Virus record (IMG/VR): IMGVR_UViG_3300009709_000001
Location: 317,336-381,335 of that record
DNA from: a virus
Lineage: Duplodnaviria > Heunggongvirae > Uroviricota > Caudoviricetes
Length of the DNA: 64,000 bases
Reading direction: 5' to 3' (one strand)
Made by a program: the position numbers and the translations under genes
In this document: positions 415 to 62,696 of the stretch, in pieces
Numbering within the stretch: position 1 is the stretch's first letter
Layout of the letters: each line of letters opens with the position of its first letter
The notes under the pieces: generated by a model
Seen by the model: the letters and a program-made list of their open reading frames with translations, nothing else
The model's database searches: none
Told to the model about the DNA's origin: nothing

Positions 415-671
415 GATAGCAGATACCGGTGGAACTGATCTTGGTCTACTTCGTAGTCGTAGAGCAGCAGGAAATGTAGTTGATCTTCGGCGCGATCGAA
501 CACGAGCACTTTGTGATTATCGATGAGACGAACATTGTATTTTTTCAACACAGCCTCAACATTATCCCATCCATTTAGCCAATGAACGGTCATGAAGGTT
601 CTCCACCACCGTGGACATTCCCCTAATGAGTTGTCGCCAAGATAGAGAGTGTACCCGGGTGTCTTGGTCAT
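411..671 (-). CDS. hypothetical protein (86 aa)
   Basis: ORF 411..704 trimmed to the ATG at 669-671, which overlaps the stop of 668..946 (ATGA). Confidence 0.5.
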   Translation of the reverse strand: MTKTPGYTLYLGDNSLGECPRWWRTFMTVHWLNGWDNVEAVLKKYNVRLIDNHKVLVFDRAEDQLHFLLLYDYEVDQDQFHRYLLS

Positions 672-946
672 TCTTGTTCCTTGTAGGAGCCGTGCACCGG
701 ACACACATCGCCAAAATCTTCAAGGGAAAAATCTTCCCAGAATTTCGGATAATACCGGTCCTCTTCTGCAAGATAATACGTTCCGTATTTCTTAATCAGA
801 TCAAGATCGGTAATTTCTTTGTTGTGGAGCTTTACACAATCGGCAAGGTACTCGTTGTGCTTGGCAATGATCGGTGCTTGGGCCTTGGCCGCGGCCGCGC
901 GGGTCGCATCATCATAGCGGCGAGTTTTACCAAATCGTTTGGGCAT
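668..946 (-). CDS. hypothetical protein (92 aa)
   Basis: ORF track; co-directional array; no motif recognised. Confidence 0.5.
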   Translation of the reverse strand: MPKRFGKTRRYDDATRAAAAKAQAPIIAKHNEYLADCVKLHNKEITDLDLIKKYGTYYLAEEDRYYPKFWEDFSLEDFGDVCPVHGSYKEQE

Positions 947-1637
947 GGTGTTCCCTTAAAACCGAGTTTGACCATTGATAATAGTAACCGACCGAACCTT
1001 TAAGTCCCATTTTCTTTAGTGCTAAATTCGAACTACCTGTTTCGATATACAAACCCAAGAACTCATCTTTTCTCTTATCTAATTCAGCAAATTTTTTGTT
1101 ATCCTTTTTTCTACACTCTTTGCCACAGGTAAATTTTTTTACAGAATGTAGGAATTCGCAACCACAAACCCGACAAGTTTGAAAAGAATTATCAAAATCG
1201 TTAACTCTACCCTTAAGCCATCTCTGATCTAAATAAATCTGAATTTCAGAAATCTTTATCTTTTTATTCTCTCTTAGATTTCTATTATAGATCCAACAAG
1301 TTCCAAATTGGGAATTATTTTCACCACTCGATGATTCTTTAATCGATGTCTTGGCCCACTGATAAATTCTTCCCGTAAATCTTACTTGCTCCGATGACGA
1401 ACATTTTGCCATCATAATAGCTGCCCAGGCCAGTTTAGCATTTAATGGGTTTGCCTTACTCAATAGAAGATGTGCAACATAGTGTTCTTTTGCGGTTAGT
1501 TCTACAAGATTATTTAGATTGTCGGTTCCGCCCATGCACCGCGGAATAATATGATGCCTTTCGCGATACACTTCGTCGGATAAAACTCTGTCTTTTGCTT
1601 TTTCTATGAGATTATTGTATACTTTTTGATAATCCAA
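927..1637 (-). CDS. HNH homing endonuclease (236 aa)
   Basis: HNH core RERHHIIPRCMGGTDNLNNLVELTAKEHYVAHLLL; very AT-rich; first codon is TTG; paralog of 14903, 28365 and 46924 genes. Confidence 0.8.
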   Translation of the reverse strand: MDYQKVYNNLIEKAKDRVLSDEVYRERHHIIPRCMGGTDNLNNLVELTAKEHYVAHLLLSKANPLNAKLAWAAIMMAKCSSSEQVRFTGRIYQWAKTSIKESSSGENNSQFGTCWIYNRNLRENKKIKISEIQIYLDQRWLKGRVNDFDNSFQTCRVCGCEFLHSVKKFTCGKECRKKDNKKFAELDKRKDEFLGLYIETGSSNLALKKMGLKGSVGYYYQWSNSVLREHHAQTIW

Positions 1638-1638
1638 A

Positions 1639-1671
1639 ATACTTCTACTCCTATGATGGAAGTAGAAGTAT
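1639..1671 (-). promoter_or_regulatory. 11-bp perfect hairpin abutting the HNH start codon (RBS-occluding candidate)
   Basis: atacttctact (1639-1649) pairs with agtagaagtat (1661-1671), 11-nt loop; on the mRNA the only AGGAG lies at the loop/3' arm junction and the TTG start is 1 nt after the stem. Confidence 0.5.
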
Positions 1672-1681
1672 TTATCATTTT

Positions 1682-1760
1682 TGGTACCCCGGACAGGATT
1701 CGAACCTGCATTGACTCCATTACACTTCTACGCTTTAGAAGAGCGCTGTGGTACCGAGGT
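1682..1760 (-). tRNA. tRNA-like gene, 76 nt + encoded CCA; possible anticodon UCU (Arg); non-canonical D region
   Basis: Hand fold of minus strand: acceptor ACCTCGG/CCGGGGT (7 bp, one G-U), T arm GCAGG-TTCGAAT-CCTGT, discriminator A, CCA; only 5-bp/7-nt-loop arm is GCGCT-CTTCTAA-AGCGT, displaced 12 nt toward the 5' end; no canonical D arm found. Confidence 0.5.
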
Positions 1761-1768
1761 CTGAATTA

Positions 1769-2107
1769 TTATCTAAAAGCGAGAATAACTTTCTGTTTGA
1801 TTTCCATGAGGCGCATCGGACTCATCTTTGCCCGATAACACACCTCCAGCATTTCGTATTCTCTATCGCGAATTGGGGCGATCTTATGTTCTTTCCCCGA
1901 AAGCTTCAGGAATGTTTCGTACTCGCCATCAAGGCGAATAAGCATTCCGGTTCCCTCGTATACATAGAACATCGCACCACCACGAATTAGGGTCGAATTC
2001 CCTTTTATATCATATTCGGTGATTTCGATGTCTACGTAATCCTTCAACAATTCGTAGCAACCTGCAGGAAGCTCCCGAACTGCCGAAGCACGAGCGAAGT
2101 AAATCAT
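1769..2107 (-). CDS. hypothetical protein (112 aa)
   Basis: ORF 1769..2179 trimmed to ATG 2105-2107, which overlaps the stop of the 37-aa ORF (ATGA); stop lies 8 nt before the tRNA-like 5' end. Confidence 0.5.
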   Translation of the reverse strand: MIYFARASAVRELPAGCYELLKDYVDIEITEYDIKGNSTLIRGGAMFYVYEGTGMLIRLDGEYETFLKLSGKEHKIAPIRDREYEMLEVCYRAKMSPMRLMEIKQKVILAFR

Positions 2108-2239: not shown

Positions 2240-2268
2240 ATTTTATTGTAGGTTTAGAAAGTTGTCAA
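2240..2268 (-). promoter_or_regulatory. sigma70-type promoter TTGACA-17-TAAAAT
   Basis: Minus strand cgctcatTTGACAactttctaaacctacaaTAAAATgtagg; -35 overlaps stop of 2265..2609; ~22-nt leader with AAGGAG before the 37-aa ORF. Confidence 0.65.
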
Positions 2269-9357: not shown

Positions 9358-9741
9358 TTAACCCGTAATAAGTCCACTATCTGGTGAGTTCCATAAAGGC
9401 CCAACAGAAACAGGCCCGTATGTCTTCACAGGTGCAGTCATCGTTGTTCCATCATCTAATCTAAAACTTAGGTGACCTGCACGGTTACAGATATCTAGAA
9501 AGTTATCAGTCACCTCAACCATAAATGTTCCTTCTTCCGGAGACAATAAAATGAGTTGACGCATCTTGAACTGTACCGAAGCTGGATTCTTTGGATACCA
9601 GTTAATGGATATAATCCTATCCAGGTCTGTTCCTAATAACCTGAAGTAACTTGGAATGCCGCTTGTGATAACAATGCCGACAAGGCCTGAGCCTTCATAC
9701 GGACTGGAGGGTAATGCCTGGATGCGAGAAATGACTGTCAT
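9358..9741 (-). CDS. hypothetical protein (127 aa)
   Basis: ORF track; 4-nt overlap with upstream gene. Confidence 0.55.
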   Translation of the reverse strand: MTVISRIQALPSSPYEGSGLVGIVITSGIPSYFRLLGTDLDRIISINWYPKNPASVQFKMRQLILLSPEEGTFMVEVTDNFLDICNRAGHLSFRLDDGTTMTAPVKTYGPVSVGPLWNSPDSGLITG

Positions 9742-10076
9742 CTATTATTTATCTGCAAATTATTGTTCCAGTCATAAGAGCCCGATCGAGAAATACCTTT
9801 TCGAAGCTCGAGTGTTCTTTCTTTACTAAGGAAAACTATTCTATCGGATTTTAACCTATTAAATTCCTCGTCAGTTATTAGAGGAACATTATGGCCCCAG
9901 CGAAGCTTTACATATAGGTCGAATCCCTCAGCAGATTCAATAATCCATCCATTGGACCAATCATCAAGTTTTAGATGGCCACGGCCTGTTAACTCTGCAC
10001 TAACACAGACGAGCATACCCGAATAGTCTTCTTCGAGAAGACTAATCTGAGAACTCTTTAGGTAATAGTAGCTCAT
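9738..10076 (-). CDS. hypothetical protein (112 aa)
   Basis: ORF track; 4-nt overlaps on both sides. Confidence 0.55.
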   Translation of the reverse strand: MSYYYLKSSQISLLEEDYSGMLVCVSAELTGRGHLKLDDWSNGWIIESAEGFDLYVKLRWGHNVPLITDEEFNRLKSDRIVFLSKERTLELRKGISRSGSYDWNNNLQINNR

Positions 10077-12355: not shown

Positions 12356-12687
12356 CAGTGAAAGCCGAGATATTTCTCAACTAACTCATTAATGTCTCTT
12401 TCGAGTTTTTCGGTATTGATGAATACCTTAATATCTCGCATCTTCTTGAATGTTTCTTCCATCACTTCCCAGTTCGCATCTTTGTTAACTGGAATTGGAT
12501 GGGTCAATTCGCTACCGCTAAGTTCAACAACATTACCATCATAATACTGCACCAAAATGTGTTCGATGTATTTTGCTGGAATTTCTTTAGCATCTACTTC
12601 TTTCACAATCCGGTCAAAGACTGATGGTTTAGCTATTCTGCTAATAGCCTTGTCGAGATTAAAGCTCGTTGTCCTTTTCGATGGCAT
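12352..12687 (-). CDS. hypothetical protein (111 aa)
   Basis: ORF track; 1-nt overlap with upstream GIY-YIG gene. Confidence 0.55.
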   Translation of the reverse strand: MPSKRTTSFNLDKAISRIAKPSVFDRIVKEVDAKEIPAKYIEHILVQYYDGNVVELSGSELTHPIPVNKDANWEVMEETFKKMRDIKVFINTEKLERDINELVEKYLGFHC

Positions 12688-13223
12688 TAAATAATCTCCT
12701 TATTTTTCTTGGCATTTTTATTGCCAATTTTTGCTAGAGATAATTTCTTTCTATGCTCATCGGACATATTCTTGGTCGCTAACGACAATTTGTCTTTTTG
12801 GGCTTGAGACATAGGGGGCCTGGATTTACCGATTAAACTATTAGAAATATTCTTTTTAGTCTCCTCGGATCTTATAGCACCGAGATGTCTTTGAGAAATT
12901 TTTTCCTTCGATTCTCTAGTATGCTTATATCCGGATGTTCCTTCGACGCCGTTGGTAAAATTCCAAAGTGTTCCTGTTTCTAGATCACGACGACCAAAAA
13001 TTGATATTAAACATTCTTCGAGAAAGAATGAATGTTCTTCGTCCAGTGCATTTATAATTTCGATATTGACGGAAAATCCCGAATCTATAATCTTTTGTTT
13101 TCTAGATTCGACATTTTTATTTTTATCGACTTTAAATCTTCTACCTGTCCCCTTACCGACATAGAATGGCTCATTATTTCTTGTCGGATCTCTAAGAATA
13201 TAGGTAAAGAATTTCTTTGCCAT
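12687..13223 (-). CDS. GIY-YIG homing endonuclease (178 aa)
   Basis: FFTYILRDPTRNNEPFYVGKGTGRR; four NUMOD3-like repeats (HTRESKEKIS, RSEETKKNIS, MSQAQKDKLS, MSDEHRKKLS); AT-rich. Confidence 0.8.
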   Translation of the reverse strand: MAKKFFTYILRDPTRNNEPFYVGKGTGRRFKVDKNKNVESRKQKIIDSGFSVNIEIINALDEEHSFFLEECLISIFGRRDLETGTLWNFTNGVEGTSGYKHTRESKEKISQRHLGAIRSEETKKNISNSLIGKSRPPMSQAQKDKLSLATKNMSDEHRKKLSLAKIGNKNAKKNKEII

Positions 13224-13255
13224 GGTTATCTCCCGTTTACCATATATTTATATGG

Positions 13256-13284
13256 AAAACATGGTTGAATAACAACCATGTTTT
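13256..13284 (-). terminator. hairpin terminator (12-bp stem)
   Basis: aaaacatggttg-aataa-caaccatgtttt, 4 nt after the stop of 13288..14055; A/T tracts form the stem ends, so it could act in both directions. Confidence 0.6.
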
Positions 13285-14902: not shown

Positions 14903-15439
14903 TTACAAAGAATACAGCAATGCAGTGATTATAGCGGAATCTTTGGCTTTCTGCAAGTCTAACCAATATTTCTTCCAATATAAATCAACTTCTTCGGGAG
15001 TTTTGAATGGCCGTTGTTTATAGGTGGTATTTCTAAGAGCTTCAGCCCTTTTAGCAATATGCTCGGGTGTTTGTTTACGACCGCGATTAGCATTACCTAT
15101 CTTTTTCTTGTGTTGTTCGGATTTTGGCTTGTCTTTGTGAAGTTTTGAGATTTCTTCAGCCACACGATTTCTTAACCATCCGTACATTTTATTCCTTTTT
15201 ACTTTTCCATCTTTGGACATTCTAACCAATGCGAAAATAAGATATGGATGTTCCGGATATATACGAACTAATAACCTATGTGCAAGCCAATGTTCTTCGG
15301 CTGTTAGTTTAACGATATTTTCGGGATCATCTGTGCCACCTATGCATCGTGGAATTATATGATGCTTTTCGCAATATCCGATAATTTCACGTGATTTGGC
15401 ACATTCGATGAGTTTATTGTATGCTTCTTGATATTTCAT
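14903..15439 (-). CDS. HNH homing endonuclease (178 aa)
   Basis: HHIIPRCIGGTDDPENIVKLTAEEHWLAHRLL; N-terminus MKYQEAYNKLIE parallels MDYQKVYNNLIE of the 927 gene, so the start is set to ATG 15439 (track start 15472 is TTG). Confidence 0.8.
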   Translation of the reverse strand: MKYQEAYNKLIECAKSREIIGYCEKHHIIPRCIGGTDDPENIVKLTAEEHWLAHRLLVRIYPEHPYLIFALVRMSKDGKVKRNKMYGWLRNRVAEEISKLHKDKPKSEQHKKKIGNANRGRKQTPEHIAKRAEALRNTTYKQRPFKTPEEVDLYWKKYWLDLQKAKDSAIITALLYSL

Positions 15440-15501: not shown

Positions 15502-15534
15502 AAAAATAAAAAAGGACTGCGCCAACAGTCCTTT
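15502..15534 (-). terminator. rho-independent terminator
   Basis: Minus strand aaaggactg-ttggcg-cagtccttt followed by tttatttttg. Confidence 0.75.
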
Positions 15535-15667
15535 GCGAGTAACAGAAGTGAACTATCCTAAGGGATATGCAGTAAGGCCTTCGTTTAACATACCAGGCCC
15601 TACCACCTTTTGTACTCAAAGTTATTTATCATAAATGTTTCTAGTATTTATCAACATATAGAATCAA

Positions 15668-16380: not shown

Positions 16381-16611
16381 TTATCCAATTAATTCAAGGT
16401 AGTCTTGAAATTCGGGCGGGAGTCCGCGTAGACGAAGAGCAACAGCATCTTCTTGTTTTTCGAAATCGACAGTCATGGCATTACGTTCGACTTTATAGAC
16501 GACTTGTTGCTCACAAATCTGATCTACCCAATCCTTGAAGAATAATTCAACTAATAATTTCTTATCAGTCTCGATATTCTCTTTAGTCTTGAATAGTATG
16601 GATGTTCGCAC
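16381..16611 (-). CDS. hypothetical protein (76 aa)
   Basis: ORF track (TTG at 16614); GTG at 16611 has AGGAG 7 nt upstream; FEKQEDAVALRLRG is a weak EEDA-helix match. Confidence 0.5.
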   Translation of the reverse strand: MRTSILFKTKENIETDKKLLVELFFKDWVDQICEQQVVYKVERNAMTVDFEKQEDAVALRLRGLPPEFQDYLELIG

Positions 16612-16643
16612 CAATAGTCTCCTATTGATGCTATTTATCCTTA

Positions 16644-18256: not shown

Positions 18257-19456
18257 TTACCTATTGTTTTGGGGCGAATGGTTGTCCGGCTCGTACCAAG
18301 CAGTCATACCAAACGGTGCGACCAGCCGTCGTTGCGTATCGCCGTGGATGAGGAACAGAGTGTCGCAGTAATTCTCGTCACCCCAGCTACCGCAAGGATA
18401 GCCGTCAGTCATCACGATGAAGCGTTCCGGCATCACATCATTTTCCTTCATGTAATCCCAGTTCACTGTGAAGTCGGTACCGCCACCACCCTTCAGATCG
18501 TAGGTATCGATGTCATCGATATTTTCCGGCGTAAAGATCTGCGGGTTGTAAACGCGAGTGTCGAATGTCCAAACGGTAAGCTTGAAGTCCATGAACTGTT
18601 CCATGATGCCCTTGACTTCGCCGAGCAAGTCACGCAGCATGTCTTCAGACATAGAACCCGATGCGTCAATTGCCACAGCGGCCTCGACACGTACATCTTC
18701 CTTCGTACCCGGCAGGTAGATGCCGCTCGACTGAGACTTACGCGAGCAGCGACTCCAGGTGAAGTCATTGCGAATCATCGACTGAATCTTCATGTTCAGG
18801 ATTTCACGCCAATCCATCTGCGGATTGGTCAAATCCTTCAGCATGCGCTTCACACCTGCAGGCACATTGCCAGCGCCAGCTGCCTTCGAAGCTTGCATCA
18901 CGGCAGCACGGATCTCGTCGCCCAGGATACGGCGTTCTTCCTCTGTCATCGGCTCACCCTTGCCATCGCCTGGCTCCAAGTGGATGTCGAATTCGGGGAA
19001 CTTCTGGCTCGGGTCCTTCATTAGGGCTTCGTACACTTCTTCAGCGAACATACCCTTGAACTTGGGATCGAAGCAGGCAGTCACACCAGATGTCTTGGGG
19101 TCGGGGATCTTACCGACACTGTTCTCGTGGAGTTCCCAGTTGATGACGTAGTCGGCAGCAGCGTTCCAAGCCTTCGGCTTACGCGAACCACGACGACCCA
19201 TGTGGTCATAGACGCAGTGTTCCACTTCGTGCGCAACCAAGAAAATCGTTTCTTGTTTGTTCAACTTCAGAATGAAGTTGCGATTGAAGTAGAAACTGCG
19301 ACCATCGGTGGCAGCAGTGGGGCACCAGCCATCGGGATCGTCGGTAGCGTCCTTCAGAATCAAGCGAGTGGCCAACGTGCCCCAGAACGGCTGTTGCAGA
19401 AGAAGAGAGATGCGTGCTCGCGTCAGCTGTTCAAATGCTTTTTCCTGATCGGTCAT
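18257..19456 (-). CDS. VWA-domain protein with N-terminal HExxH metallopeptidase-like region (MoxR partner, CobT-like)
   Basis: AHEVEHCVYDH (HExxH) and MIDAS AIDASGSMS (DxSxS); GC-rich; own promoter and hairpin. Confidence 0.8.
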   Translation of the reverse strand: MTDQEKAFEQLTRARISLLLQQPFWGTLATRLILKDATDDPDGWCPTAATDGRSFYFNRNFILKLNKQETIFLVAHEVEHCVYDHMGRRGSRKPKAWNAAADYVINWELHENSVGKIPDPKTSGVTACFDPKFKGMFAEEVYEALMKDPSQKFPEFDIHLEPGDGKGEPMTEEERRILGDEIRAAVMQASKAAGAGNVPAGVKRMLKDLTNPQMDWREILNMKIQSMIRNDFTWSRCSRKSQSSGIYLPGTKEDVRVEAAVAIDASGSMSEDMLRDLLGEVKGIMEQFMDFKLTVWTFDTRVYNPQIFTPENIDDIDTYDLKGGGGTDFTVNWDYMKENDVMPERFIVMTDGYPCGSWGDENYCDTLFLIHGDTQRRLVAPFGMTAWYEPDNHSPQNNR

Positions 19457-20418: not shown

Positions 20419-21405
20419 ATGGTAAATGTATTCTATAAGGAATTTCTAAAGATGAAGACACACAAATGCGAAAATATGACTTGCCAGAATAAATCCGAAA
20501 AGGATAAGTACGGCAATTATAAAAGATACTGCTCGGATGAATGCAAAAAGGTATCGAGATTATTAAAATTCAAAGAAACATATCAACATAAAGATATGGG
20601 TGCAATATTACAAAAACGAAAAGATACATTATTGTCTAAGTATGGTGTCGAGAACGCAGCATGTATATCTGAGGTCAAAGAAAAACTGCGTATAACCACT
20701 ACTAATACCGCGCAAATCCGCACAATAAAAACTAAAGAGACAAACTTAGCACGTTACGGCGTTGAGAGTACAAATTCCCTTGAGTCTGTTCAAGAGAAGA
20801 AAAAGCAAACCTTACTTGAAAGGTACGGCGTAGATCATCAACTTAAAATACCAGGAGTAGCTGCCGAAGTTTCGAAGAAGAATTCGGAAAATGCTAAGGA
20901 GCGACTAGTAAAGTCGAAGAAGACCAATCTTGAAAGATATGGATGTGAAAATCCATCTGCAAACGAAGATATCAAACTCAAAAGAACTGCAACTATGATT
21001 GAACGGTTCGGTGTAGAGAATGCATCGCAGAATGCTAAGGTTCAGTCGAAAAAAGTCAGGGCCGGCTTTAAGACTAAAAAATATACTTTCCCGTCCGGAA
21101 GAATAGACCATGTCCAAGGATATGAACCTTTGGCACTCAGTCAACTTTTACAGGAGGGATATCAAGAAAATGACATTATTACGCTTGATGAATTGATGCC
21201 GGAACTATGGTATCATGAATCGGATGGATCTAAGCGCAGATATTTCCCAGATATTTATATCCCGAAAGAAAATCTATTAATCGAAGTTAAATCCGAATAT
21301 ACTTATCGCGGATTTATTGGTTGGCTAATAACCAACCAATTAAAAGAGCAATGTGCCAGAGATGCTGGATTTAATTATCGACTAATGATAATGGTAAAGA
21401 AATAA
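20419..21405 (+). CDS. repeat-rich PD-(D/E)xK-like homing endonuclease candidate (328 aa)
   Basis: Five ~35-aa modules (KYGVENAAC, RYGVESTNS, RYGVDHQLK, RYGCENPSA, RFGVENASQ); C-terminal YFPDIYIPKENLLIEVKSEYT (D...ExK); AT-rich, antisense to the gene array; alternative start at 20452. Confidence 0.55.
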   Translation: MVNVFYKEFLKMKTHKCENMTCQNKSEKDKYGNYKRYCSDECKKVSRLLKFKETYQHKDMGAILQKRKDTLLSKYGVENAACISEVKEKLRITTTNTAQIRTIKTKETNLARYGVESTNSLESVQEKKKQTLLERYGVDHQLKIPGVAAEVSKKNSENAKERLVKSKKTNLERYGCENPSANEDIKLKRTATMIERFGVENASQNAKVQSKKVRAGFKTKKYTFPSGRIDHVQGYEPLALSQLLQEGYQENDIITLDELMPELWYHESDGSKRRYFPDIYIPKENLLIEVKSEYTYRGFIGWLITNQLKEQCARDAGFNYRLMIMVKK

Positions 21406-24128: not shown

Positions 24129-24881
24129 ATGCAAGAATTTAAACCAACATGGTTATACATAAAGAAACACAATATCACTGGTTTACAATATTTCGGTAAA
24201 ACAAATAGATATCATCCCGAGAAATATATAGGGTCTGGAAAATACTGGCTAGCGCATTTAAGGGTGCATGGAAAAGATATATCAACAACATGGTGTGAAC
24301 TATTCTTCGACCAGCAAACATTGGTAGAATATGCGCTTAAATTTTCAAAAGAAAATAATATAGCCGAATCAAGTGAATGGGCCAATCTTAAGTTTGAAAA
24401 CGGTCTTGATGGAGGTCACAGTGGCGTGGCAAGGAGCGATGAGACAAAGGAAAAATTATCTAAGAAAAATAGAGGAAAACGACATACAAAGGAAACCAAA
24501 AATAAAATTTCAGATTCCAATAAAGGTAAACATAACATGGTAAGACCTGCAGATGTCGGAGCCAAAATTTCGAAAGCACTGACCGGTAAAAAACGAGGTC
24601 CAATGCCAGATGAAACAAAAAGAAAAATTGGTGATGCAAATAAAGGAAAACCTTCATCAAAGAAGGGTATACCAATGCCAGATGAAACAAAAAGAAAAAT
24701 TGGTGATGCAAATAAAGGAAAACCTTCATCAAAGAAGGGTATACCTAGGTCAGCTATTGATAAAGATAAAATCAGAAAAGGCCAAGAAAATGTACCCGAA
24801 ATAACTTGCCCACACTGTCATATTTCAAATAAACCCGGATGTATGAAAAGATGGCACTTTGATAATTGTAAAAAGAAATAA
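24129..24881 (+). CDS. GIY-YIG-type (Seg-like) homing endonuclease (250 aa)
   Basis: WLYIKKHNITGLQYFGKTN; NUMOD3-like repeats (RSDETKEKLS, HTKETKNKIS, PMPDETKRKIG x2); C-terminal CPHC...KRWHFDNC zinc finger; AGGAGA RBS. Confidence 0.75.
   Translation: MQEFKPTWLYIKKHNITGLQYFGKTNRYHPEKYIGSGKYWLAHLRVHGKDISTTWCELFFDQQTLVEYALKFSKENNIAESSEWANLKFENGLDGGHSGVARSDETKEKLSKKNRGKRHTKETKNKISDSNKGKHNMVRPADVGAKISKALTGKKRGPMPDETKRKIGDANKGKPSSKKGIPMPDETKRKIGDANKGKPSSKKGIPRSAIDKDKIRKGQENVPEITCPHCHISNKPGCMKRWHFDNCKKK
24600..24744. repeat. perfect 72-bp tandem duplication (2 copies) inside the endonuclease gene
   Basis: caatgccagatgaaacaaaaagaaaaattggtgatgcaaataaaggaaaaccttcatcaaagaagggtatac at 24601-24672 and 24673-24744; duplicates 24 aa PMPDETKRKIGDANKGKPSSKKGI. 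Confidence 0.95.
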
Positions 24882-28287: not shown

Positions 28288-28364
28288 AGCGTACCCACCA
28301 CAGTTTCATCTTTTAATTTCCAAATGCCATCGCCAATTATTGGTCCAAAAAGATAAATAAACAT

Positions 28365-29192
28365 ATGAATACTCCATTTCTAAATAACAAATATACTGCC
28401 CGATATTATAAAATTATTAATACCGTTTTAGAATTAAATCGAAAGAAATTAAAAAGAAATAACCCTGATTACAGGTATTATGAATTGCATCATATTATTC
28501 CCAAATCATTAGGTGGTGACAATTCTTCTGCAAATCTTATACCTTTGACACCAAGGGAACATTATATATGCCACCTTTTACTCACCCGAATGACTGAAGG
28601 TAAAAATAGATATAAGATGCTCTGTGCATTCAACAGAATAACAAATAGAGGCCAGGCAGAAATTAAAAATTCTAGATTATATAATTCTATTCGAGAAGAC
28701 TTTTCGAAATCGCAGGCCGAAAATTATAAAGGTGATAAAAATCATTTTTATGGAAAGACTCACACAAAAGAAATCAGAGATTATTTAGCTGAGGTATGTC
28801 CACGATTCGGTAAAGATAATGGCAATTTTGGTAAATCATTATCTCAATCACAAAAAGATGCAATTTCGAAAAGTAATAAATCCAGAAAAATTATACCTCC
28901 ACCTCCGCAACTCGGTTCAAAAAATCATTTTTCTAAGATTTATAAAATAATCGACCCAACCGGTAATAAATTTACAATAAAATGCATGAGTGAATTTTGT
29001 GAAAGAAACAATCTTTGTAGTCGAACAATGATTTTATTTAAGGACAAAGGAAAAATTCCTGAATTGCAATTCGAACGAGAATATCGTGTAAAGAATCTCC
29101 AAGCAAAGAAGAACTGTGAAGGTTATTCTATTATTTCAATGACCTCGCCCCTTGGTCCTTTTCCATCAATCGACCATACAGTTACCGGATAA
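28365..29192 (+). CDS. HNH homing endonuclease (275 aa)
   Basis: LHHIIPKSLGGDNSSANLIPLTPREHYICHLLL; a 70-nt sample at the 5' end is 23% G+C by hand count; 3' end overlaps the macro-domain gene by 70 nt (convergent). Confidence 0.8.
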   Translation: MNTPFLNNKYTARYYKIINTVLELNRKKLKRNNPDYRYYELHHIIPKSLGGDNSSANLIPLTPREHYICHLLLTRMTEGKNRYKMLCAFNRITNRGQAEIKNSRLYNSIREDFSKSQAENYKGDKNHFYGKTHTKEIRDYLAEVCPRFGKDNGNFGKSLSQSQKDAISKSNKSRKIIPPPPQLGSKNHFSKIYKIIDPTGNKFTIKCMSEFCERNNLCSRTMILFKDKGKIPELQFEREYRVKNLQAKKNCEGYSIISMTSPLGPFPSIDHTVTG

Positions 29193-35618: not shown

Positions 35619-36884
35619 TTAGCCCTTGACACATAACACCTGCTTCAAGGTGTGTACAACCTTGACCAAGTCAGTTTGGCTGAGCATCACATCGTCAATG
35701 GACTTATAGGCTGCCGGACTTTCGTCAATCATGCCTTCGTCCTTACGGCATTCCACACCTGCAGTGGCCGCCACGTGTTCTTCAACCGTAATTTCCTTCT
35801 TTGCTTTGGAACGGCTCATCTTGCGTCCTGCACCATGGCTGCATGAGCAGAAGCTTTCAACATTACCCAGGCCTTCAACGATGAAGCTCTTTGCACCCAT
35901 CGAGCCCGGGATGATGCCCAACTCACCAGCTTGTGCGCTTACCGCGCCCTTACGAGTAACGATCACGTTTTCACCAAAGTGAACTTCTTCGTTGATGTAG
36001 TTGTGGTGGCAATTGATAGCTTCCTTCGTGATCTTGAAGACAGGAAGATGACGAGTCAGCGCCGTAATAACCAGTTCCAACATTGCGTCACGGTTGCGAC
36101 GTGCGTATTCCTGCGCCCAGCTCATTGCCTCGACATAATCGTCGTAATGTTGGCTACCTTCCTGCAAGTAAGCCAGATCCTTGTTCGGAAGAACAATCTT
36201 CTGTTCTTCAGCGTCTTTCTGTGCCAGCTCGATAAAGTAACGACCGATTGCATTACCAATGCCGCGAGAACCACTGTGGAGCATAATCCACACATCGTTG
36301 TTTTCATCGATGCACAGTTCGATGAAGTGATTGCCTCCGCCCAACGAACCGAGCTGAGTACGCGCCTTCTTTTCAGCGTCCTTGACCATCTTGTCGATGC
36401 CAGGATGCTTTGCAACGATTGCTTCCAGGCCAGTCTTCAGATTCTTGAACTGGTTGTTCAGAACGGTGCGTGTATTTTGATGACCCTTGCCATTCAAACG
36501 GTCGGTACTGTGTTCGTCGAACCCAACAGGCACCATCAATTCGATTTCGGAACGAACCTTGTGCAGATTGTCCGGAAGCTGATCAGCAGTCAAGCTGGTA
36601 CGACATGCAATCATGCCGCAACCAATATCAACGCCAACAGCCGCAGGAATTACAGTGCCGTGCGTTGCAAGCACCGTACCAACAGTAGAACCAGTACCAA
36701 CGTGTACGTCCGGCATCGCAGCCACGTGCTTAAATACAAAAGGCAGTTTGGTAATGCTGCGAAGTTGATCGATCGCGCCGGATTCGACGGGGACGTGCTT
36801 AGTCCACATTTTCACATCAACAAGGTCTCCTCGAATTAAATTATATGGGAGATATTTCTCATCATTAATATCTTCTTGCATCAT
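35619..36884 (-). CDS. rtcB: RtcB RNA 3'-phosphate ligase (421 aa)
   Basis: HSGSRGIGN, CHHNY and CSCSHGAGR motifs; full length. Confidence 0.95.
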   Translation of the reverse strand: MMQEDINDEKYLPYNLIRGDLVDVKMWTKHVPVESGAIDQLRSITKLPFVFKHVAAMPDVHVGTGSTVGTVLATHGTVIPAAVGVDIGCGMIACRTSLTADQLPDNLHKVRSEIELMVPVGFDEHSTDRLNGKGHQNTRTVLNNQFKNLKTGLEAIVAKHPGIDKMVKDAEKKARTQLGSLGGGNHFIELCIDENNDVWIMLHSGSRGIGNAIGRYFIELAQKDAEEQKIVLPNKDLAYLQEGSQHYDDYVEAMSWAQEYARRNRDAMLELVITALTRHLPVFKITKEAINCHHNYINEEVHFGENVIVTRKGAVSAQAGELGIIPGSMGAKSFIVEGLGNVESFCSCSHGAGRKMSRSKAKKEITVEEHVAATAGVECRKDEGMIDESPAAYKSIDDVMLSQTDLVKVVHTLKQVLCVKG

Positions 36885-37558
36885 TTTTCCTTACAATTAT
36901 CGAAATGCCATCTTTTCATTTGGCTATTACCGCCAATTTTACCACAATATGGGCACTCAATTTTTATACGAGGAACTCTCATTTTTATTTTTTGTTCCTC
37001 GCTCATTGGTCTATTTTTACTAAATGGTTCTCTACCTTTGTTAGCCAAAGAAATTTTATTTTTCGTTTCTTGAGTTGTAATATGCCCCTTCAGGGAATTG
37101 GATCGTTTTATATTTTCTTCTATTGAAGGTTTTCTACCGGGTACACCTTTCTTAGATTTCGAAATTTTTTCTTTTGTAGAGGCTAAACACGGGCCGGTAC
37201 TCTTTCCAATTTTTGCTACAGACATTTTGGACTTGGCGGCTTCAGAATGTTTTCTTCCACCCGGACCTTCGCCGCCATCTGTTAGATTAAGCAACGGACC
37301 TTTACCGAGATCTTTTCTTCCAAATTTAGAAATAAGTTCTTCCTCAATTAAGTGCGCCAGTTCTTCATCGAGGCCAGAATAAATACCAATAATCGGAATA
37401 ATTTGGTTTCTTTCCATTAATTTTAATCGTTGTATTAATGGATGTTTTCCTTTTCTCTTTAAATGACTCCATGCACGACTATCTCTGCCTTTACCGACAT
37501 ATATCGGTTCATTATTTCGAGAAGGATCGTAGTAGATATAGGTGTAATAATTATTCAT
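36881..37558 (-). CDS. GIY-YIG homing endonuclease (225 aa)
   Basis: YYTYIYYDPSRNNEPIYVGKGRDSRAWSH; NUMOD3-like repeats; C-terminal CPYC...KRWHFDNC zinc finger; stop overlaps the rtcB ATG (ATGA). Confidence 0.8.
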   Translation of the reverse strand: MNNYYTYIYYDPSRNNEPIYVGKGRDSRAWSHLKRKGKHPLIQRLKLMERNQIIPIIGIYSGLDEELAHLIEEELISKFGRKDLGKGPLLNLTDGGEGPGGRKHSEAAKSKMSVAKIGKSTGPCLASTKEKISKSKKGVPGRKPSIEENIKRSNSLKGHITTQETKNKISLANKGREPFSKNRPMSEEQKIKMRVPRIKIECPYCGKIGGNSQMKRWHFDNCKEK

Positions 37559-37573
37559 TACACTATTTATCTA

Positions 37574-41673: not shown

Positions 41674-42040
41674 TTAGGAAACAGTTCTCCAAGAACTGTT
41701 CAATTCCACCGCAGAGTTTTACGGTCATTGCATCCATTTCAGAAAAGAGTATAAGACGACGAGATGTAAAGAAGTAAGGATATTCCATATTAGCCATACC
41801 TGCATGGTGCCTGGCTTTAATTGTTTCTGGAATCTCGAAACTATAGACTGTGAAAATTCGCTTCAGGATAAGAAATCCCGAGTATGTCAACCTTAAGCCA
41901 TCTCTGTGATGAAAAATACGTTGATGGAGTTGTTCATCATTAAGTTCGGCCGCTTCTGCATTCTGTTTGCGGACCTCTTCAAAAATGGCCAACTTGAGTG
42001 GTGTCATAATCGTATTTATATTCTCGTTCTGTTCGGACAT
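41660..42040 (-). CDS. hypothetical protein (126 aa)
   Basis: ORF track. Confidence 0.55.
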   Translation of the reverse strand: MSEQNENINTIMTPLKLAIFEEVRKQNAEAAELNDEQLHQRIFHHRDGLRLTYSGFLILKRIFTVYSFEIPETIKARHHAGMANMEYPYFFTSRRLILFSEMDAMTVKLCGGIEQFLENCFLIDRY

Positions 42041-42059
42041 TTTTTAGATAAATAGTGAT

Positions 42060-42428
42060 ATGAAACTTCGCGAAATTCTACTAGAACACATGGTAACGCA
42101 CTTGCTCGAATTATGCAAACGTGAACTAGAAATTGATCAATTTCCTCAAATACAGCTTATCAACGAGCCAACAACTCGTAGCGGCACATCATTCGGCGAA
42201 TTTGACGGAAATATTGTGGTAGTTATTAAGGGAAGACACCCGATGGATGTTATGAGAACTCTTGCACACGAGTTGGTGCACTGGAAACAAAGAGTTGAAA
42301 ATTTGGAACTAGATGGTTCCGATGGAAGTGATACCGAAAATCAGGCAAATGCGATTGCCGGTATCATAATGCGAAAATTCGGGCAAATGTATCCCGAATA
42401 TTTCTTTGAAACTCTTCCAAAATCTTAA
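42060..42428 (+). CDS. small HExxH-motif protein (122 aa), putative metallopeptidase-like
   Basis: TLAHELVHWKQ; occupies a gap in the minus-strand array. Confidence 0.45.
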   Translation: MKLREILLEHMVTHLLELCKRELEIDQFPQIQLINEPTTRSGTSFGEFDGNIVVVIKGRHPMDVMRTLAHELVHWKQRVENLELDGSDGSDTENQANAIAGIIMRKFGQMYPEYFFETLPKS

Positions 42429-47592: not shown

Positions 47593-48453
47593 ATGCATTT
47601 GCATTTGCATTCTGTAACCGTGCTCCATACAATATCTACCCACGTATTCGTGATTTTCTTGTATCTTCTGCATATTTAATAATCCCGGTTCGAAGAAATT
47701 AATAACTTCATCAACAGTTGAGCGCTCATCCATTGTGATATTGCCTTTTTCGTTGTGTAGAATTTTAATCTTCTGTGGAAGGCTGTTATACACATTCATC
47801 GGGCTAAGATATACTTCCTTAGTAGGATTATTTCTTTTCCACTCATGTGCCCATTCCGGAATTTGATTGTATGGGCTATCTGTTTCGGCACTAACGACAA
47901 ACTTCAAGCAATCTGCTCTTTCCAAAATTTGTTTGGTAGGAGAAAGATACTTAGTAGCCACACCATTCTTTTCAGCACATTTCGGGCTGCAAACGAGTGT
48001 AACACCTTCAGGAATAGGAAGATTTACAGTACCATTGCTTTCGATTTGTACTGCTCTGAAGTTAGGAACTTGTCTTTCTAGGAATGCTGTAAGGTTTGAT
48101 TGTAGTGTGGGTTCACCACCTGTAATAACCATAACAATGTTCGGGAAACTATATGCCTTCTTATCTGGATGTGCCCAAATAGGTGCTACACCACCTTTGT
48201 CTTCCCAATATTTATAGATCGTGTCACCTACCTTCTTTTCCAGTTCTTCATAAGTCATCCAATCTCCATCATCGAAGAATGTATCACAGAAAGAACAAGC
48301 TAGGTTACATTTTGTCAATCTAATGAATAGTGCAGGAGAACCGGCGTATGGACCCTCGCCTTGAAGTGTAAAGAACATACTTGTAACAAATAAACTATTC
48401 TCTGGTGCATCTTTGAAAAATTTCTGGCCAATAATTTGGTTAGTTCCGAACAT
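47572..48453 (-). CDS. queE: 7-carboxy-7-deazaguanine synthase QueE-like radical SAM enzyme (293 aa)
   Basis: TLQGEGPYAG followed by CNLACSFCDT (CxxxCxxC). Confidence 0.8.
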   Translation of the reverse strand: MFGTNQIIGQKFFKDAPENSLFVTSMFFTLQGEGPYAGSPALFIRLTKCNLACSFCDTFFDDGDWMTYEELEKKVGDTIYKYWEDKGGVAPIWAHPDKKAYSFPNIVMVITGGEPTLQSNLTAFLERQVPNFRAVQIESNGTVNLPIPEGVTLVCSPKCAEKNGVATKYLSPTKQILERADCLKFVVSAETDSPYNQIPEWAHEWKRNNPTKEVYLSPMNVYNSLPQKIKILHNEKGNITMDERSTVDEVINFFEPGLLNMQKIQENHEYVGRYCMEHGYRMQMQMHLFANLA

Positions 48454-48985
48454 CTATTAATTCCTTCATTTCGTTTAGTGATAGAAATAACTTTTCACAG
48501 CTAAAACCATCTTTCTTATATTTGCTATTTTCTAAACACCAGCTTCTTATTGTTGTGTGATAAACACCGTAGAATTTGGCAGCGTGTTCTAGGGATGGAA
48601 ATTTTCCGTCTAGTGTGGTTACCAACATTTTCCATCCTTTTGCATCATCTCTGTCAATTTTGCCGAGAGAACACTCAACTTCTGGAACAACATATTCTCT
48701 AGAAAGGTAATTTATTGCACTTTGTAGAAGAGAAATATCATCCTTGAATAACCCGAGTGCGGTGTTGCAGTCAGTGCATAGTAGACCTCTGATTTTTCCA
48801 GATACATGATTATGATCAACTGCTAGATCTCTTCCGCAATAGTCGACTTGCTGGCAGATGCAACAGACACCATTTTGATCGGATTTTATTGCTTCATATT
48901 GATCGTAGTTTATTCCAAACTTCAAAAGAAGCCCATTTTTCTTTCTTCTTTTTTTAGATCTTTCCGGTGTATTAATTATTCCCAT
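48440..48985 (-). CDS. Endonuclease VII-type (HNH-like) homing endonuclease candidate (181 aa)
   Basis: CCICQ...LAVDHNHVSGKIRGLLCTDCNTALG; C-terminal HTH-like tail; AT-rich. Confidence 0.75.
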   Translation of the reverse strand: MGIINTPERSKKRRKKNGLLLKFGINYDQYEAIKSDQNGVCCICQQVDYCGRDLAVDHNHVSGKIRGLLCTDCNTALGLFKDDISLLQSAINYLSREYVVPEVECSLGKIDRDDAKGWKMLVTTLDGKFPSLEHAAKFYGVYHTTIRSWCLENSKYKKDGFSCEKLFLSLNEMKELIDVRN

Positions 48986-48991
48986 AAAAAT

Positions 48992-49018
48992 CTCCTTGTT
49001 TCTTATTTATACAAGGAG
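48992..49018 (-). promoter_or_regulatory. hairpin sequestering the Shine-Dalgarno of the EndoVII-type gene
   Basis: mRNA CTCCTTG-tataaataagaaa-CAAGGAG-attttt-ATG; the 3' arm contains the AAGGAG RBS. Confidence 0.55.
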
Positions 49019-49023
49019 CTGGT

Positions 49024-49049
49024 AAACACTATAGAAATCTATAGTGTTT
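49024..49049 (-). terminator. 11-bp hairpin overlapping the stop of 49048..49629
   Basis: aaacactatag-aaat-ctatagtgttt; T tract lies within the stem end. Confidence 0.5.
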
Positions 49050-49629
49050 ATTCATCGGTCCCTTTTAACTTTTCAATAATTTTAGAGGATTCCAGCATGA
49101 AAGTCAAGTCATCTGCTGTCAGGGCGCCTTTCTCCTTCGCAAACCGAATTACATCTTCAAAGACTTGATCTCGAATCTTACATTTCAGAGCGTGACTAAT
49201 ACCGAGTTTATTTTCGACACTAAAATTCAGCATCTTTTCAAATTGTCGGGATGCTTCATTGACATCTACTTCGGGCGCCCATTCGACTGATCCATCCTTA
49301 TTCAGACGAACAAGTTCTTTACCTGCGGCAGAATAGATTGTCAACAATGTCTTATCAGTTGCTGAGCTGCTGAATACATATGAAGAAGCTGGCGGAGACG
49401 CCGGCATTGTAAACCAACTCGACGAAACTCCTACGCCACCAGTAAGAATACCACTTGTGAACATTCCGCTGCTACTACCGGTAGTAGTGATCGAGCCCAT
49501 ATTAATTCCCGATGATCCTACTGCACCGACATTAGTCATTGGTGTTCCACTTGCATTACCTGTTGGTGCTGGTGGTACTACATTATTCAACGGAGTCTCT
49601 TGTCTTTTCTTAAAATATTTTTCAAACAT
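49048..49629 (-). CDS. hypothetical protein (193 aa) with Gly/Ser/Thr-rich N-terminal half
   Basis: ORF track. Confidence 0.55.
   Translation of the reverse strand: MFEKYFKKRQETPLNNVVPPAPTGNASGTPMTNVGAVGSSGINMGSITTTGSSSGMFTSGILTGGVGVSSSWFTMPASPPASSYVFSSSATDKTLLTIYSAAGKELVRLNKDGSVEWAPEVDVNEASRQFEKMLNFSVENKLGISHALKCKIRDQVFEDVIRFAKEKGALTADDLTFMLESSKIIEKLKGTDE
49079..49107 (-). promoter_or_regulatory. internal sigma70-type promoter TTGACT-17-TAAAAT upstream of the EndoVII-type gene
   Basis: Minus strand gacTTGACTttcatgctggaatcctcTAAAATtattg, inside the 3' end of 49048..49629. Confidence 0.5.
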
Positions 49630-61151: not shown

Positions 61152-61402
61152 TAGCCGAGACCTCCAGCCTTGTATAGTTCTTCAAGTTCGTCCCAATCTT
61201 CACGGGCGTCATTCATTCGACCCTTTTGAACGATCTTGATTAGCTTATTCAACTGTGCTGGTTTGACTTCTAGTTCCTCGGCGATTGCCTTCACTGTTTC
61301 ATTGAGACCTTGCTTCAGGTCTTCGCATTCCTGAAGAACTGATACACCATCTTGAACGAGTTGTTTCAGACGTGTGATATTTTCTTGGCTAAGTTTCGCC
61401 AT
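61151..61402 (-). CDS. hypothetical protein (83 aa)
   Basis: ORF track; 1-nt overlap with PolB. Confidence 0.55.
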
Positions 61403-62000
61403 TTTTATTTTTCTCCTGCTCTAATTTTCTTTTAGCCCATCGCTCTTTCATCGATGCACTCTGTTTCATTTTTGCTTCAGGCGTCTGTGGTTGTCCCTTA
61501 TTATAAGGCACTCTACCAGACATATTCTTACTCATTGATTCTTTTGCGGATTCTGTGTGTTTGCGACCCAACATCGGGTGCTGCAATTTAGATCTTGCTT
61601 CGGTTGCTTTTTCATAAACCCAGTCGGGTTGTCTTTTGCCGAAAAATGAGCTATTTTCACCAGAGTGTTGCTGTCTTAATTTTTCTCTAATTTCCGGTGT
61701 TTTAGCATCAGACATTTTCTGTTTGGTTTCAGCAGTATGTTTTCTTCCCGAGGCGCCTTCACCACCGTCGGTTAAATTTCTAAGAATACCTGTTCCGATA
61801 TCTTTTCTGCCATACCAACGAATATATCTTCGTTCTAGTGCAAATGCACCTATTTCTGTAAGATTAGACTCGAGTATAATAATCCGAAATTTATCCGGTG
61901 GGACATTTACAGTATGTCGACCGAGAAATCTTTTACCTGATCCTTTACCGATATAATAAGGAGTATTATCTACTCTAAGATAAGCGTAAACATAGAACAT
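61389..62000 (-). CDS. GIY-YIG homing endonuclease (203 aa)
   Basis: [24 protein letters not shown]; NUMOD3-like repeats ([20 protein letters not shown]). Confidence 0.8.
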
Positions 62001-62079: not shown

Positions 62080-62670
62080 TCAGAATCTTCCGTAGGCATC
62101 CCCGGTAATAGGATCGTTGGTTCCCTTATACATATGGGGATCATAGCCGTGAATTGGAGACAATAAACCCTTGGCTTGATTGTCATCACGTACATCACCG
62201 GTAAATCTGTACATTTGGTCAGGCATTACTCGCTTGAACCATTCGACAATTAGCGGTCTAACATCTTGACCGGGCTCTGATTCTTCGATTGACTTGAACT
62301 GATCTGTTAATTCATCGTCATCAATTAGGCCTTCAATAAAAATCGGTGCTATCACAGCAGGGATTGGTTTCTCAAGCATTTTCTTTGCAAGCTCAAAATC
62401 ATCATTTGAGAGTGGCAAACGATGTACTGCTTCAGATAAGGTATTTGACATGCACATTTCCGGAACTAGGCCTTTAAGTTCACGATAATCTGCACGAAGC
62501 TTATCTTTTAGGAATTCTCTGCCGTTAGGAGATGTTCCTGGGTGCATAATCTTATCAACATATCGATCCATGCGTCCTTGGAGCATGTCAATACGCATGG
62601 CTGTTTGCGGCGAGAGGCTACGATCACTCATAGCCCCTTTCGGTAATAATAGTTCTAGAATTCGCATCAT
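62080..62670 (-). CDS. hypothetical protein (196 aa)
   Basis: ORF track. Confidence 0.55.
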   Translation of the reverse strand: MMRILELLLPKGAMSDRSLSPQTAMRIDMLQGRMDRYVDKIMHPGTSPNGREFLKDKLRADYRELKGLVPEMCMSNTLSEAVHRLPLSNDDFELAKKMLEKPIPAVIAPIFIEGLIDDDELTDQFKSIEESEPGQDVRPLIVEWFKRVMPDQMYRFTGDVRDDNQAKGLLSPIHGYDPHMYKGTNDPITGDAYGRF

Positions 62671-62696
62671 GTATTTATCACATGATGCGTCGGTTA

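Follow-up and report, generated by a model that had tools for sequence, protein, structure and literature searches.

A candidate late-only switch at the start of a Mob-like HNH homing endonuclease gene in an uncultured jumbo phage

The HNH gene and the hairpin over its start

We analyzed a 64,000-nucleotide (nt) stretch of phage DNA, hereafter the window (positions 317,336 to 381,335 of IMG/VR record IMGVR_UViG_3300009709_000001), which represented about one sixth of a phage genome of ~385 kb. The subject of the analysis was a hairpin that covers the translation start of a free-standing Mob-like HNH homing endonuclease gene, together with a putative late promoter that overlaps the hairpin. The features that make up this locus were as follows (coordinates are window positions).

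927 to 1637, minus strand: free-standing Mob-like HNH homing endonuclease gene, 236 amino acids (aa)
1635 to 1637, minus strand: UUG start codon, derived from ATG via a TTT insertion (relative to the homologous loci L036, L037, and L038)
1637 to 1649, minus strand: hairpin 3' arm, AGUAGAAGUAUUU, which terminates at the first U of the start codon
1648 to 1652, minus strand: Shine-Dalgarno (SD) sequence AGGAG, 10 nt 5' of the start codon; probability of being paired, 0.80 in read-through RNA
1650 to 1660, minus strand: hairpin loop, UCCAUCAUAGG, 11 nt, which holds the first three AGGAG bases
1661 to 1673, minus strand: hairpin 5' arm, AAAUACUUCUACU
1663, minus strand: predicted late transcription start at the sixth nt past the box, which leaves 3 nt of the 13-nt 5' arm
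1669 to 1676, minus strand: late-promoter-like box of the T4 type, GATAAATA, at -13 to -6; its last five bases lie within the 5' arm
2240 to 2268, minus strand: sigma70-like promoter, TTGACA-17-TAAAAT (11/12), a likely source of early read-through transcripts

The HNH gene was located between a tRNA-like gene and a gene of the phage backbone, and it formed a low-GC island (31-39 %, versus 45-50 % in the flanks). The match of its product to phrog_655 (E = 5.5e-44) and the presence of every residue that is invariant in an alignment of 26 family members, including HH28-29, N43, H52, and H56, bore out the HNH identity proposed in an initial annotation of this DNA; the match to the Pfam HNH_5 model was below the cut-off. 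The same annotation had described TTG as a weak start codon. This start was picked by two independent gene callers, and phage homologues aligned with the HNH protein from residue 1. Two of the homologous loci (L001 and L002) had ATG-GAT/GAC-TAT-CAA-AAA-GT at the place of the window's TTG-GAT-TAT-CAA-AAA-GT, and ATG was found at exactly the window's TTG codon, ahead of GAY-TAY, in 70 of the 80 metagenomic homologues. The start was confirmed because homologues bear ATG at the same codon, and on the evidence of these alignments it is secure. TTG is a derived state, produced by the TTT insertion that also extended the stem of the hairpin.

On the minus strand, the order from the tRNA-like gene to the HNH open reading frame (ORF) was CCA, AAAAUG, AUAAAUA, CUUCUACU, UCCAUCAUAGG, AGUAGAAGUAUUU, and UGG AUU AUC. 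The perfect stem was 13 bp long (1673-1661 paired with 1649-1637) and enclosed the 11-nt loop; it was AT-rich, with 3 of the 13 pairs being G-C. The initial annotation had reported an 11-bp stem, and the coordinates of those pairs (1671-1661/1649-1639) were correct but the length was too low. Likewise, its placement of TTG 2 nt past the stem holds for the 11-bp stem, but the full stem includes the first base of the UUG start codon (1637-1635), since U1637 is a member of the final pair. No other SD-like element accompanied AGGAG, in agreement with the earlier description of it as the only one. Two more C-G pairs were predicted within the loop (C1659/C1658 with G1651/G1650), and because of these pairs four of the five AGGAG bases were paired.

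The folding energy, which the initial annotation had suggested calculating, was -17.0 kcal/mol for the hairpin core and -18.4 kcal/mol for the 56-nt context (z = -5.0), and none of 200 dinucleotide shuffles was equally stable. Perfect stems of at least 13 bp with loops of 3-20 nt were expected 0.02 times per 64 kb and were seen in 0 of 200 shuffles. The low chance expectation and the shuffle results indicated that the hairpin is real and no chance event; the structure and its exceptional stability are direct products of the computation. The HNH start region was also the most occluded among 122 candidate starts in the window, with a pairing probability of 0.86 in the -15 to +3 region compared to a median of 0.49.

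The late-type box and the conservation of the leader

In late promoters of the T4 type, TATAAATA spans -13 to -6, and T4 relatives show little conservation of the T at -13 (PMC1524935). In the window, the 10-mer GATAAATACT (1676-1667) overlapped the 5' arm of the hairpin, and the 10-mer was matched with no more than one mismatch 14 times, versus 5.8 times expected. Among all 7-mers, ATAAATA had the strongest enrichment within 50 nt upstream of gene starts (16.6-fold; 16 copies of 23 fell in this interval), ahead of any SD-like word. Several homing endonuclease genes had an ATAAATA box in front of them, and so did the genes for a virion structural protein and an endonuclease VII homologue. When the T4 late-box geometry was applied to GATAAATA, the predicted +1 was placed at A1663, within the 5' arm; the position of the box itself is an observation. 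The spacing between box and ATG had a sharp peak at 5 nt (box-N5-ATG, 4 times in the window and in 17/82 family members), which independently supports a putative transcription start at the sixth nt after the box.

From sequence alone, the HNH gene lay inside a longer transcription unit. The strong sigma70-like promoter at 2268-2240 is on the same strand, and a terminator scan of the minus strand between this promoter and the HNH gene found no terminator-like site up to 1637. A model of the read-through RNA had a folding energy of -23.3 kcal/mol and a pairing probability of 0.87 from the SD sequence to the start codon, and a model of RNA starting at A1663 had values of -6.1 kcal/mol and 0.54.

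Considering these data together, we think that the hairpin is probably the translational half of a two-part, T4-style late-only switch carried by the Mob-like HNH gene. Transcripts started upstream, for example, from the 2268-2240 promoter, would traverse the tRNA-like gene and hold both hairpin arms. The 13-bp helix would then bury most of AGGAG and the first UUG base, and because of this coverage, 30S binding would be poor and little endonuclease would be made. Transcripts started from the box would begin near A1663 and have no 5' arm, leaving the SD sequence and the start codon exposed; since the late start would be inside the 5' arm, the late transcript would be unable to form the hairpin. 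We infer the use of the box as a late promoter, the transcription start, and the effect on translation from the sequence features described above. A hairpin that sequesters the ribosome-binding site (RBS) and throttles translation of read-through transcripts had been proposed in the initial annotation by analogy with T4 I-TevI, with the weak start codon as reinforcement. The proposal gained in silico support, as all of its predictions at the sequence level held: the start was the most occluded of the 122, an upstream promoter had no intervening terminator, the late-type box overlapped the 5' arm, and the helix was conserved. The annotation had named a late transcript start inside the hairpin only as a point to check.

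The phage DNA polymerase was ~40 % identical to those of the jumbo T4-superfamily phages RaK2, Atu_ph07, and Phosso, which places the phage in the T4 superfamily as judged by this protein. A megablast search of 6 kb against phages gave no match, the exact hairpin pattern had no match in IMG/VR, and the flanking proteins had no match in IMG/VR or the JGI metagenomes beyond the 385-kb JGI contig of the same phage. Thus, no close relative of the host phage was present in any collection searched, and for this reason the comparative evidence was drawn from distant homologues. A leader pattern scan of IMG/VR yielded one genuine additional orthologue; the same kind of scan of bacterial and archaeal genomes yielded 94 matches, all of which were rejected as chance matches.

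The nearest HNH homologues were 42-46 % identical to the window protein, and an orthologous leader was common to five loci: L036, L037, L038, L127, and L029. The order in these leaders was a tRNA 3' end (...GGTACCA), an A/T-rich spacer, ATAAATAC preceded by C, G, or T, the hairpin, the SD sequence, and the start codon. The L037 leader, AUAAAUACUUCUACU-ACAACUAUAGG-AGUAGAAGU-AUG, was 89 % identical to that of the window from box to start, and the adjoining best-conserved part of the ORF was about 64 % identical. The box was at the same position in four of the five leaders, with L036 having ATAGATA beside an intact hairpin. The hairpin arms were nearly identical across the orthologous leaders. 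The initial annotation had tied its proposal to conservation of the stem in relatives, and the helix was kept in all five (87 % of cells paired). In L038, it persisted although U-A had become C-G, C-G had become U·G, and a bulge was present, and in L029 it persisted although C-G had become G-C. Both partners differed in two pairs, the C-G to G-C pair of L029 and the U-A to C-G pair of L038. Conservation of the cassette as such is an observed result.

The TTT insertion in the window was apparent from a comparison with L036-L038 (GAAGUA-UUU-UG versus GAAGUA-UG). It changed AUG to UUG, gave the stem two additional A-U pairs that involve the box's AAA, and increased the spacer between the SD sequence and the start codon from 7 to 10 nt, and through these changes it may have tightened the proposed switch relative to the orthologues. 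The core energies were as follows.

Window: -17.0 kcal/mol
L036: -12.9 kcal/mol
L037: -12.8 kcal/mol
L038: -8.3 kcal/mol
L029: -5.0 kcal/mol

The core of the window was the most stable of the set because the insertion extended the stem by 2 bp.

We also examined start-region pairing across the family, using 80 homologous loci that were chosen on protein motifs only, with L027, L029, and the window added. The loci were sorted into classes according to how far the ATAAATA box lay from the start codon.

Box 12-36 nt from the start ("leadered"): 29 loci, 30 with the window; mean start-region pairing, 0.68
Box 4-7 nt from the start: 25 loci; mean start-region pairing, 0.51
No box within 45 nt: 27 loci; mean start-region pairing, 0.54

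The leadered loci were more occluded than the other classes (0.68 versus 0.51-0.54, p = 7e-5). With shuffling confined to the region upstream of the predicted late start, pairing in the leadered loci fell from 0.68 to 0.54 (p = 2e-4), and the two remaining classes were unaffected (p = 0.47). In several leadered loci the arm sequences were unrelated, as in CUGUUAAC/GUUAACAG, and the 5' arm was located upstream of the box. The unrelated arm sequences indicated that the design recurs, beyond inherited sequence.

Alternative explanations and the tRNA-like neighbor

A number of results weighed against a late-only switch. The HNH box has G at -13 where T4 has T. A phmmer search with T4 gp55 found no match in the window (~64 of 385 kb) or in adjacent loci. 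The modeled late RNA retained a weak 5-bp alternative helix, and the pairing of AGGAG dropped only from 0.80 to 0.58. Formal covariation was weak: the five leaders are few and too similar, L029 was mis-registered by MAFFT, and the sequence-based alignment had one double-sided change. The helix was retained mainly by sequence identity, and a DNA-level constraint would give the same pattern. Comparison of sense and antisense folding failed to separate RNA from DNA function, as the same bias was found in all classes. The box-hairpin leader was absent from three close homologues (L001, L002, and L032), and the switch would therefore be lineage-specific. Finally, a Mob-like HNH paralogue in the window (14903-15439, minus strand; 42 % identical in the N-terminal domain, ATG start) had no box, hairpin, or clear SD sequence, so the hairpin is no genome-wide habit of the HNH family.

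Other explanations were also weighed. The hairpin might be a constitutive throttle only, which keeps the endonuclease low on all transcripts, with the ATAAATA box being inactive or a relic of the cassette. The hairpin that occludes T4 segB without a nearby promoter (PMC2330249) is a precedent for this idea, and the mutated box beside the intact hairpin of L036 and the failure to find a gp55 homologue in the window are in line with it. In addition, the longer stem, the TTG start, and the longer spacer of the window would fit a gene that is being silenced. We nevertheless view a throttle without a promoter as unlikely, since the box was the top upstream motif, with non-mobile genes included, since four of the five orthologous leaders have it at an unchanged position, and since the family-wide occlusion was tied to the sequence upstream of the predicted late start. 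It is far harder to defend a chance palindrome with no function. Nothing but the AT-richness of the region speaks for it, and the chance expectation, the shuffles, and the z score given above, together with the helix in five other contigs, make it almost certainly wrong.

The stem-loop might instead serve the tRNA-like gene as a weak intrinsic terminator, as a signal for 3' processing, or as a 5' structure that protects the RNA fragment left downstream once the tRNA is processed. The stem starts 9 nt past the encoded CCA and UUUU follows it, and after 3' processing of the tRNA the hairpin would still form, now at the 5' terminus of the RNA that is left. As a terminator, however, it would be anomalous: it has few G-C pairs (3/13), an 11-nt loop, and only UUUU after it, the terminator scan did not flag it, and the genuine terminators in the window are GC-rich with long T runs. 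The U run comes from the TTT insertion, is found in the window only, and no such run follows the stem in L036, L037, L038, and L127. On the basis of this anatomy and the lack of a U run in the orthologues, an intrinsic terminator was rejected. This hairpin was absent downstream of the tRNA-like gene in PAK_P2, phiPsa397, DC31, and 121Q, and we regard service to the tRNA-like gene as very improbable. An operator at the DNA level is, in our estimation, quite improbable as well; here, the repeat would be bound by the HNH protein or another regulator and would overlap the start site of the late promoter. The arms were almost identical across orthologues whose proteins are ~45 % identical, which is more than structure needs, and one arm holds CTTCTA, which the neighboring tRNA-Arg(UCU)-type gene has in its anticodon loop. 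The anticodon-loop hexamer of the leader's own tRNA was present in 11 of 30 homologue leaders compared to 6.2 % of cross pairs, and autorepression of I-TevI through an operator resembling its homing site is a precedent (PMC2988022). The anticodon-loop observation was post hoc, however, and its cases are non-independent (about 5-6 lineages). Furthermore, the arms of L029 match a Thr loop and its neighbor is tRNA-Pro, and the L038 helix, with its U·G pair and bulge, is a better fit to RNA than to a DNA palindrome. An operator role would be compatible with the RNA switch and not exclusive of it.

The resemblance to the anticodon loop merits a description of its own. The CUUCUA in the 5' arm (window positions 1661-1668/1641-1648 for the two arms) equals the anticodon-loop sequence of the adjacent Arg(UCU)-type gene, a copy is present in the window and four orthologues, and its complement sits between the SD sequence and the start codon. 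The leaders involved in such resemblances were L036, L037, L038, L127, L049, L063, L099, L027, and that of the window. In the Arg(UCU) and Asn(GUU) lineages, the two arms of the leader hairpin are made by the copy, and in the Asn(GUU) leader family it is the whole loop, ACUGUUAA, that makes both. A copy of the anticodon loop on the predicted late start could act as an operator that mimics the homing site, with autorepression in the style of I-TevI. More radically, the 3' arm of the leader could pair with the anticodon loop of the tRNA. Hence we offer, as a conjecture that we rate as rather unlikely, that the box-plus-hairpin leader is a portable module of a tRNA-settling HNH lineage, whose arms copy the anticodon loop as a homing-site-mimicking operator or as a tRNA-pairing RNA element.

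The genes on either side of the HNH gene and its leader were as follows.

668 to 946, minus strand: downstream 92-aa backbone gene, whose start overlaps the 3' end of the HNH gene by 20 nt
1682 to 1760, minus strand: tRNA-like gene with a UCU anticodon loop and an encoded CCA (Rfam tRNA model, 35.2 bits)
1769 to 2107, minus strand: 112-aa ORF of the phage backbone, function unassigned

The initial annotation had placed a tRNA-like 3' end upstream of the hairpin, and this end belongs to the covarying tRNA-like gene at 1760-1682. The acceptor, anticodon, and T arms were present and covarying, with compensated changes in 9 of 18 pairs (PAK_P2, phiPsa397, DC31, and 121Q). The gene is not a four-arm cloverleaf, as a 7-nt linker replaces the D-arm, and a conserved linker of 18-19 nt (UAAUGGAGUCAAU; 19 nt in the window) separates the anticodon and T arms. 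ARAGORN made no call for it in the window or in the other phages that carry copies. The tRNA-like gene was 87 % identical over 62 nt in the unrelated phages PAK_P2, phiPsa397, and Limnohabitans DC31 and ~78 % identical to its counterpart in 121Q-type jumbo phages, which carries a tRNA-Leu annotation. The loci of the copies outside the window were L023 (about 395-475), L024, L025, and L026. The orthologous loci carry a canonical tRNA-Arg(UCU) in place of the tRNA-like gene, and in PAK_P2 a different HNH gene begins 25 nt past the CCA of the tRNA-like gene. Part of the linker, GUAGAAGU (1724-1731, minus strand), is the same as part of the hairpin 3' arm and complements the anticodon loop of its own gene; it is confined to this phage's copy. 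We set this likeness aside, since a local alignment of the linker and the 3' arm (13/16, p about 0.03) was too weak to build on.

Across the family, a same-strand tRNA gene was found within 200 nt upstream in 25 of the 74 loci that had enough upstream sequence, and tRNA-Arg(UCU) accounted for 6 of these 25 tRNAs, including those of the three closest homologues. The strong association of the HNH family with tRNA genes is a further lead.

Related arrangements in the window and known systems

The window contained at least nine homing-endonuclease-like ORFs in 64 kb, an unusually dense set (927-1637, 12687-13223, 14903-15439, 18257-19456, 20419-21405, 24129-24881, 28365-29192, 36881-37558, and 61389-62000), and a NATAAATA box was directly upstream in six of the nine. 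The paralogue at 14903-15439 was located 65 nt after a canonical GC-rich terminator (15502-15534, minus strand). This terminator also appears to be the endpoint of a ~138-nt non-coding transcript driven by an exact GATAAATACT at 15652-15643, and the putative transcript (15502-15652, minus strand) had no Rfam match. A second candidate switch was noted at 16611-16638 on the minus strand, where ATAAATA (16638-16632) precedes the hairpin CAUCAAUAG-GAGA-CUAUUGGUG. Both AGGAG and the start codon (UUG/GUG) of a 77-aa ORF (16381-16614) lie within this hairpin, the predicted +1 is inside its 5' arm, and the start-region pairing was 0.78. At 62663-62689, a perfect 10-bp hairpin, CGCAUCAUGU-GAUAAAU-ACAUGAUGCG, has a late-type box in its loop, and a probable start with its SD sequence follows about 35 nt downstream. 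The usual layout in this phage was a terminator-like hairpin followed by TATAAATA, an SD sequence, and the gene, as seen with the hairpins at 13256-13284 and 49023-49050 and the minus-strand boxes at 13245-13252 and 49004-49011; one example precedes the endonuclease VII homologue (48440-48985). The HNH leader has the reversed order, with the box overlapping the hairpin.

The four box-N5-ATG sites in the window were 28353-28367 (+), 37556-37570 (-), 42005-42019 (-), and 42048-42062 (+), and a box-N4-ATG variant was present at 9739-9752 (-). Among the 82 HNH homologues, the N4 variant was found in 6 in addition to the 17 with N5, usually without an upstream SD sequence (family loci L042-L111). 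If transcription starts at the sixth nt, the A of AUG would be the first nt of the transcript, and the late mRNA would be leaderless. The arrangement looks like an alternative route to late-only translation, and no description of it was found in the literature searched.

The mechanism proposed for the HNH leader is itself already known from I-TevI, T4 segB, and Aeh1 mobE and is not mechanistically novel. The combination of a late promoter and a hairpin has been shown for T4 e, soc, and 49 and for I-TevI/II/III, and it has been shown or inferred for Aeh1 mobE and T4 segB (PMC2988022, PMC3014915, PMC2330249). At the sequence level, the window element has every feature that defines the T4-type class of late promoters combined with hairpins, and it would extend the classic T4 design to an uncultured jumbo phage of ~385 kb that is distantly related to T4. 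In this case, the leader cassette is conserved beside an HNH lineage that has diverged to about 45 % protein identity. Its conservation despite the divergence of the protein argues that real selection keeps the expression of these selfish genes tight and late-only. The proposed switch also makes a concrete prediction, namely, a transcript 5' end at about 1663.

Among the known systems, Aeh1 mobE (Gibb & Edgell 2007, 2009) is also a free-standing Mob-type HNH gene in a T4-superfamily phage with an RBS hairpin and a late promoter. As summarized in two reviews (PMC2988022 and PMC3014915), on which our anatomical comparison is based, its hairpin sequesters the RBS and its promoter lets late transcripts escape. 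The mobE gene is embedded in a ribonucleotide reductase gene, whereas the window gene lies beside a tRNA-like gene; the late boxes of Aeh1 are CTAAATA, and the window HNH protein is only distantly related to mobE and starts with UUG. The T4 segB gene shares with the window gene its free-standing state and its setting, as it lies in a tRNA region and is co-transcribed with tRNA precursors, and a predicted -20.2 kcal hairpin covers its SD sequence and start codon (PMC2330249). Unlike the window enzyme, SegB is a GIY-YIG enzyme, and no promoter near its hairpin was reported in that paper, whereas the late-type box of the window overlaps the 5' arm.

The intron-encoded genes for I-TevI/II/III form an RBS hairpin only on early or middle read-through transcripts (Gott et al. 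1988; PMC2988022), and a late (or middle) promoter immediately upstream yields transcripts that are too short for the hairpin (PMC2988022). Since the window gene is not in an intron, the rationale given for I-TevI, protection of intron splicing, is inapplicable to it, and I-TevI autorepression via an operator that overlaps its late promoter (PMC2988022) would be a speculative parallel only. In T4 e, soc, and 49, which are ordinary phage genes and not mobile elements, the late promoter TATAAATA lies in the DNA for the 5' strand of the inhibitory helix (McPheeters et al. 1986, as cited in PMC3014915). As in the putative HNH switch, the promoter DNA of these genes encodes the 5' strand of a helix over the translation initiation region.

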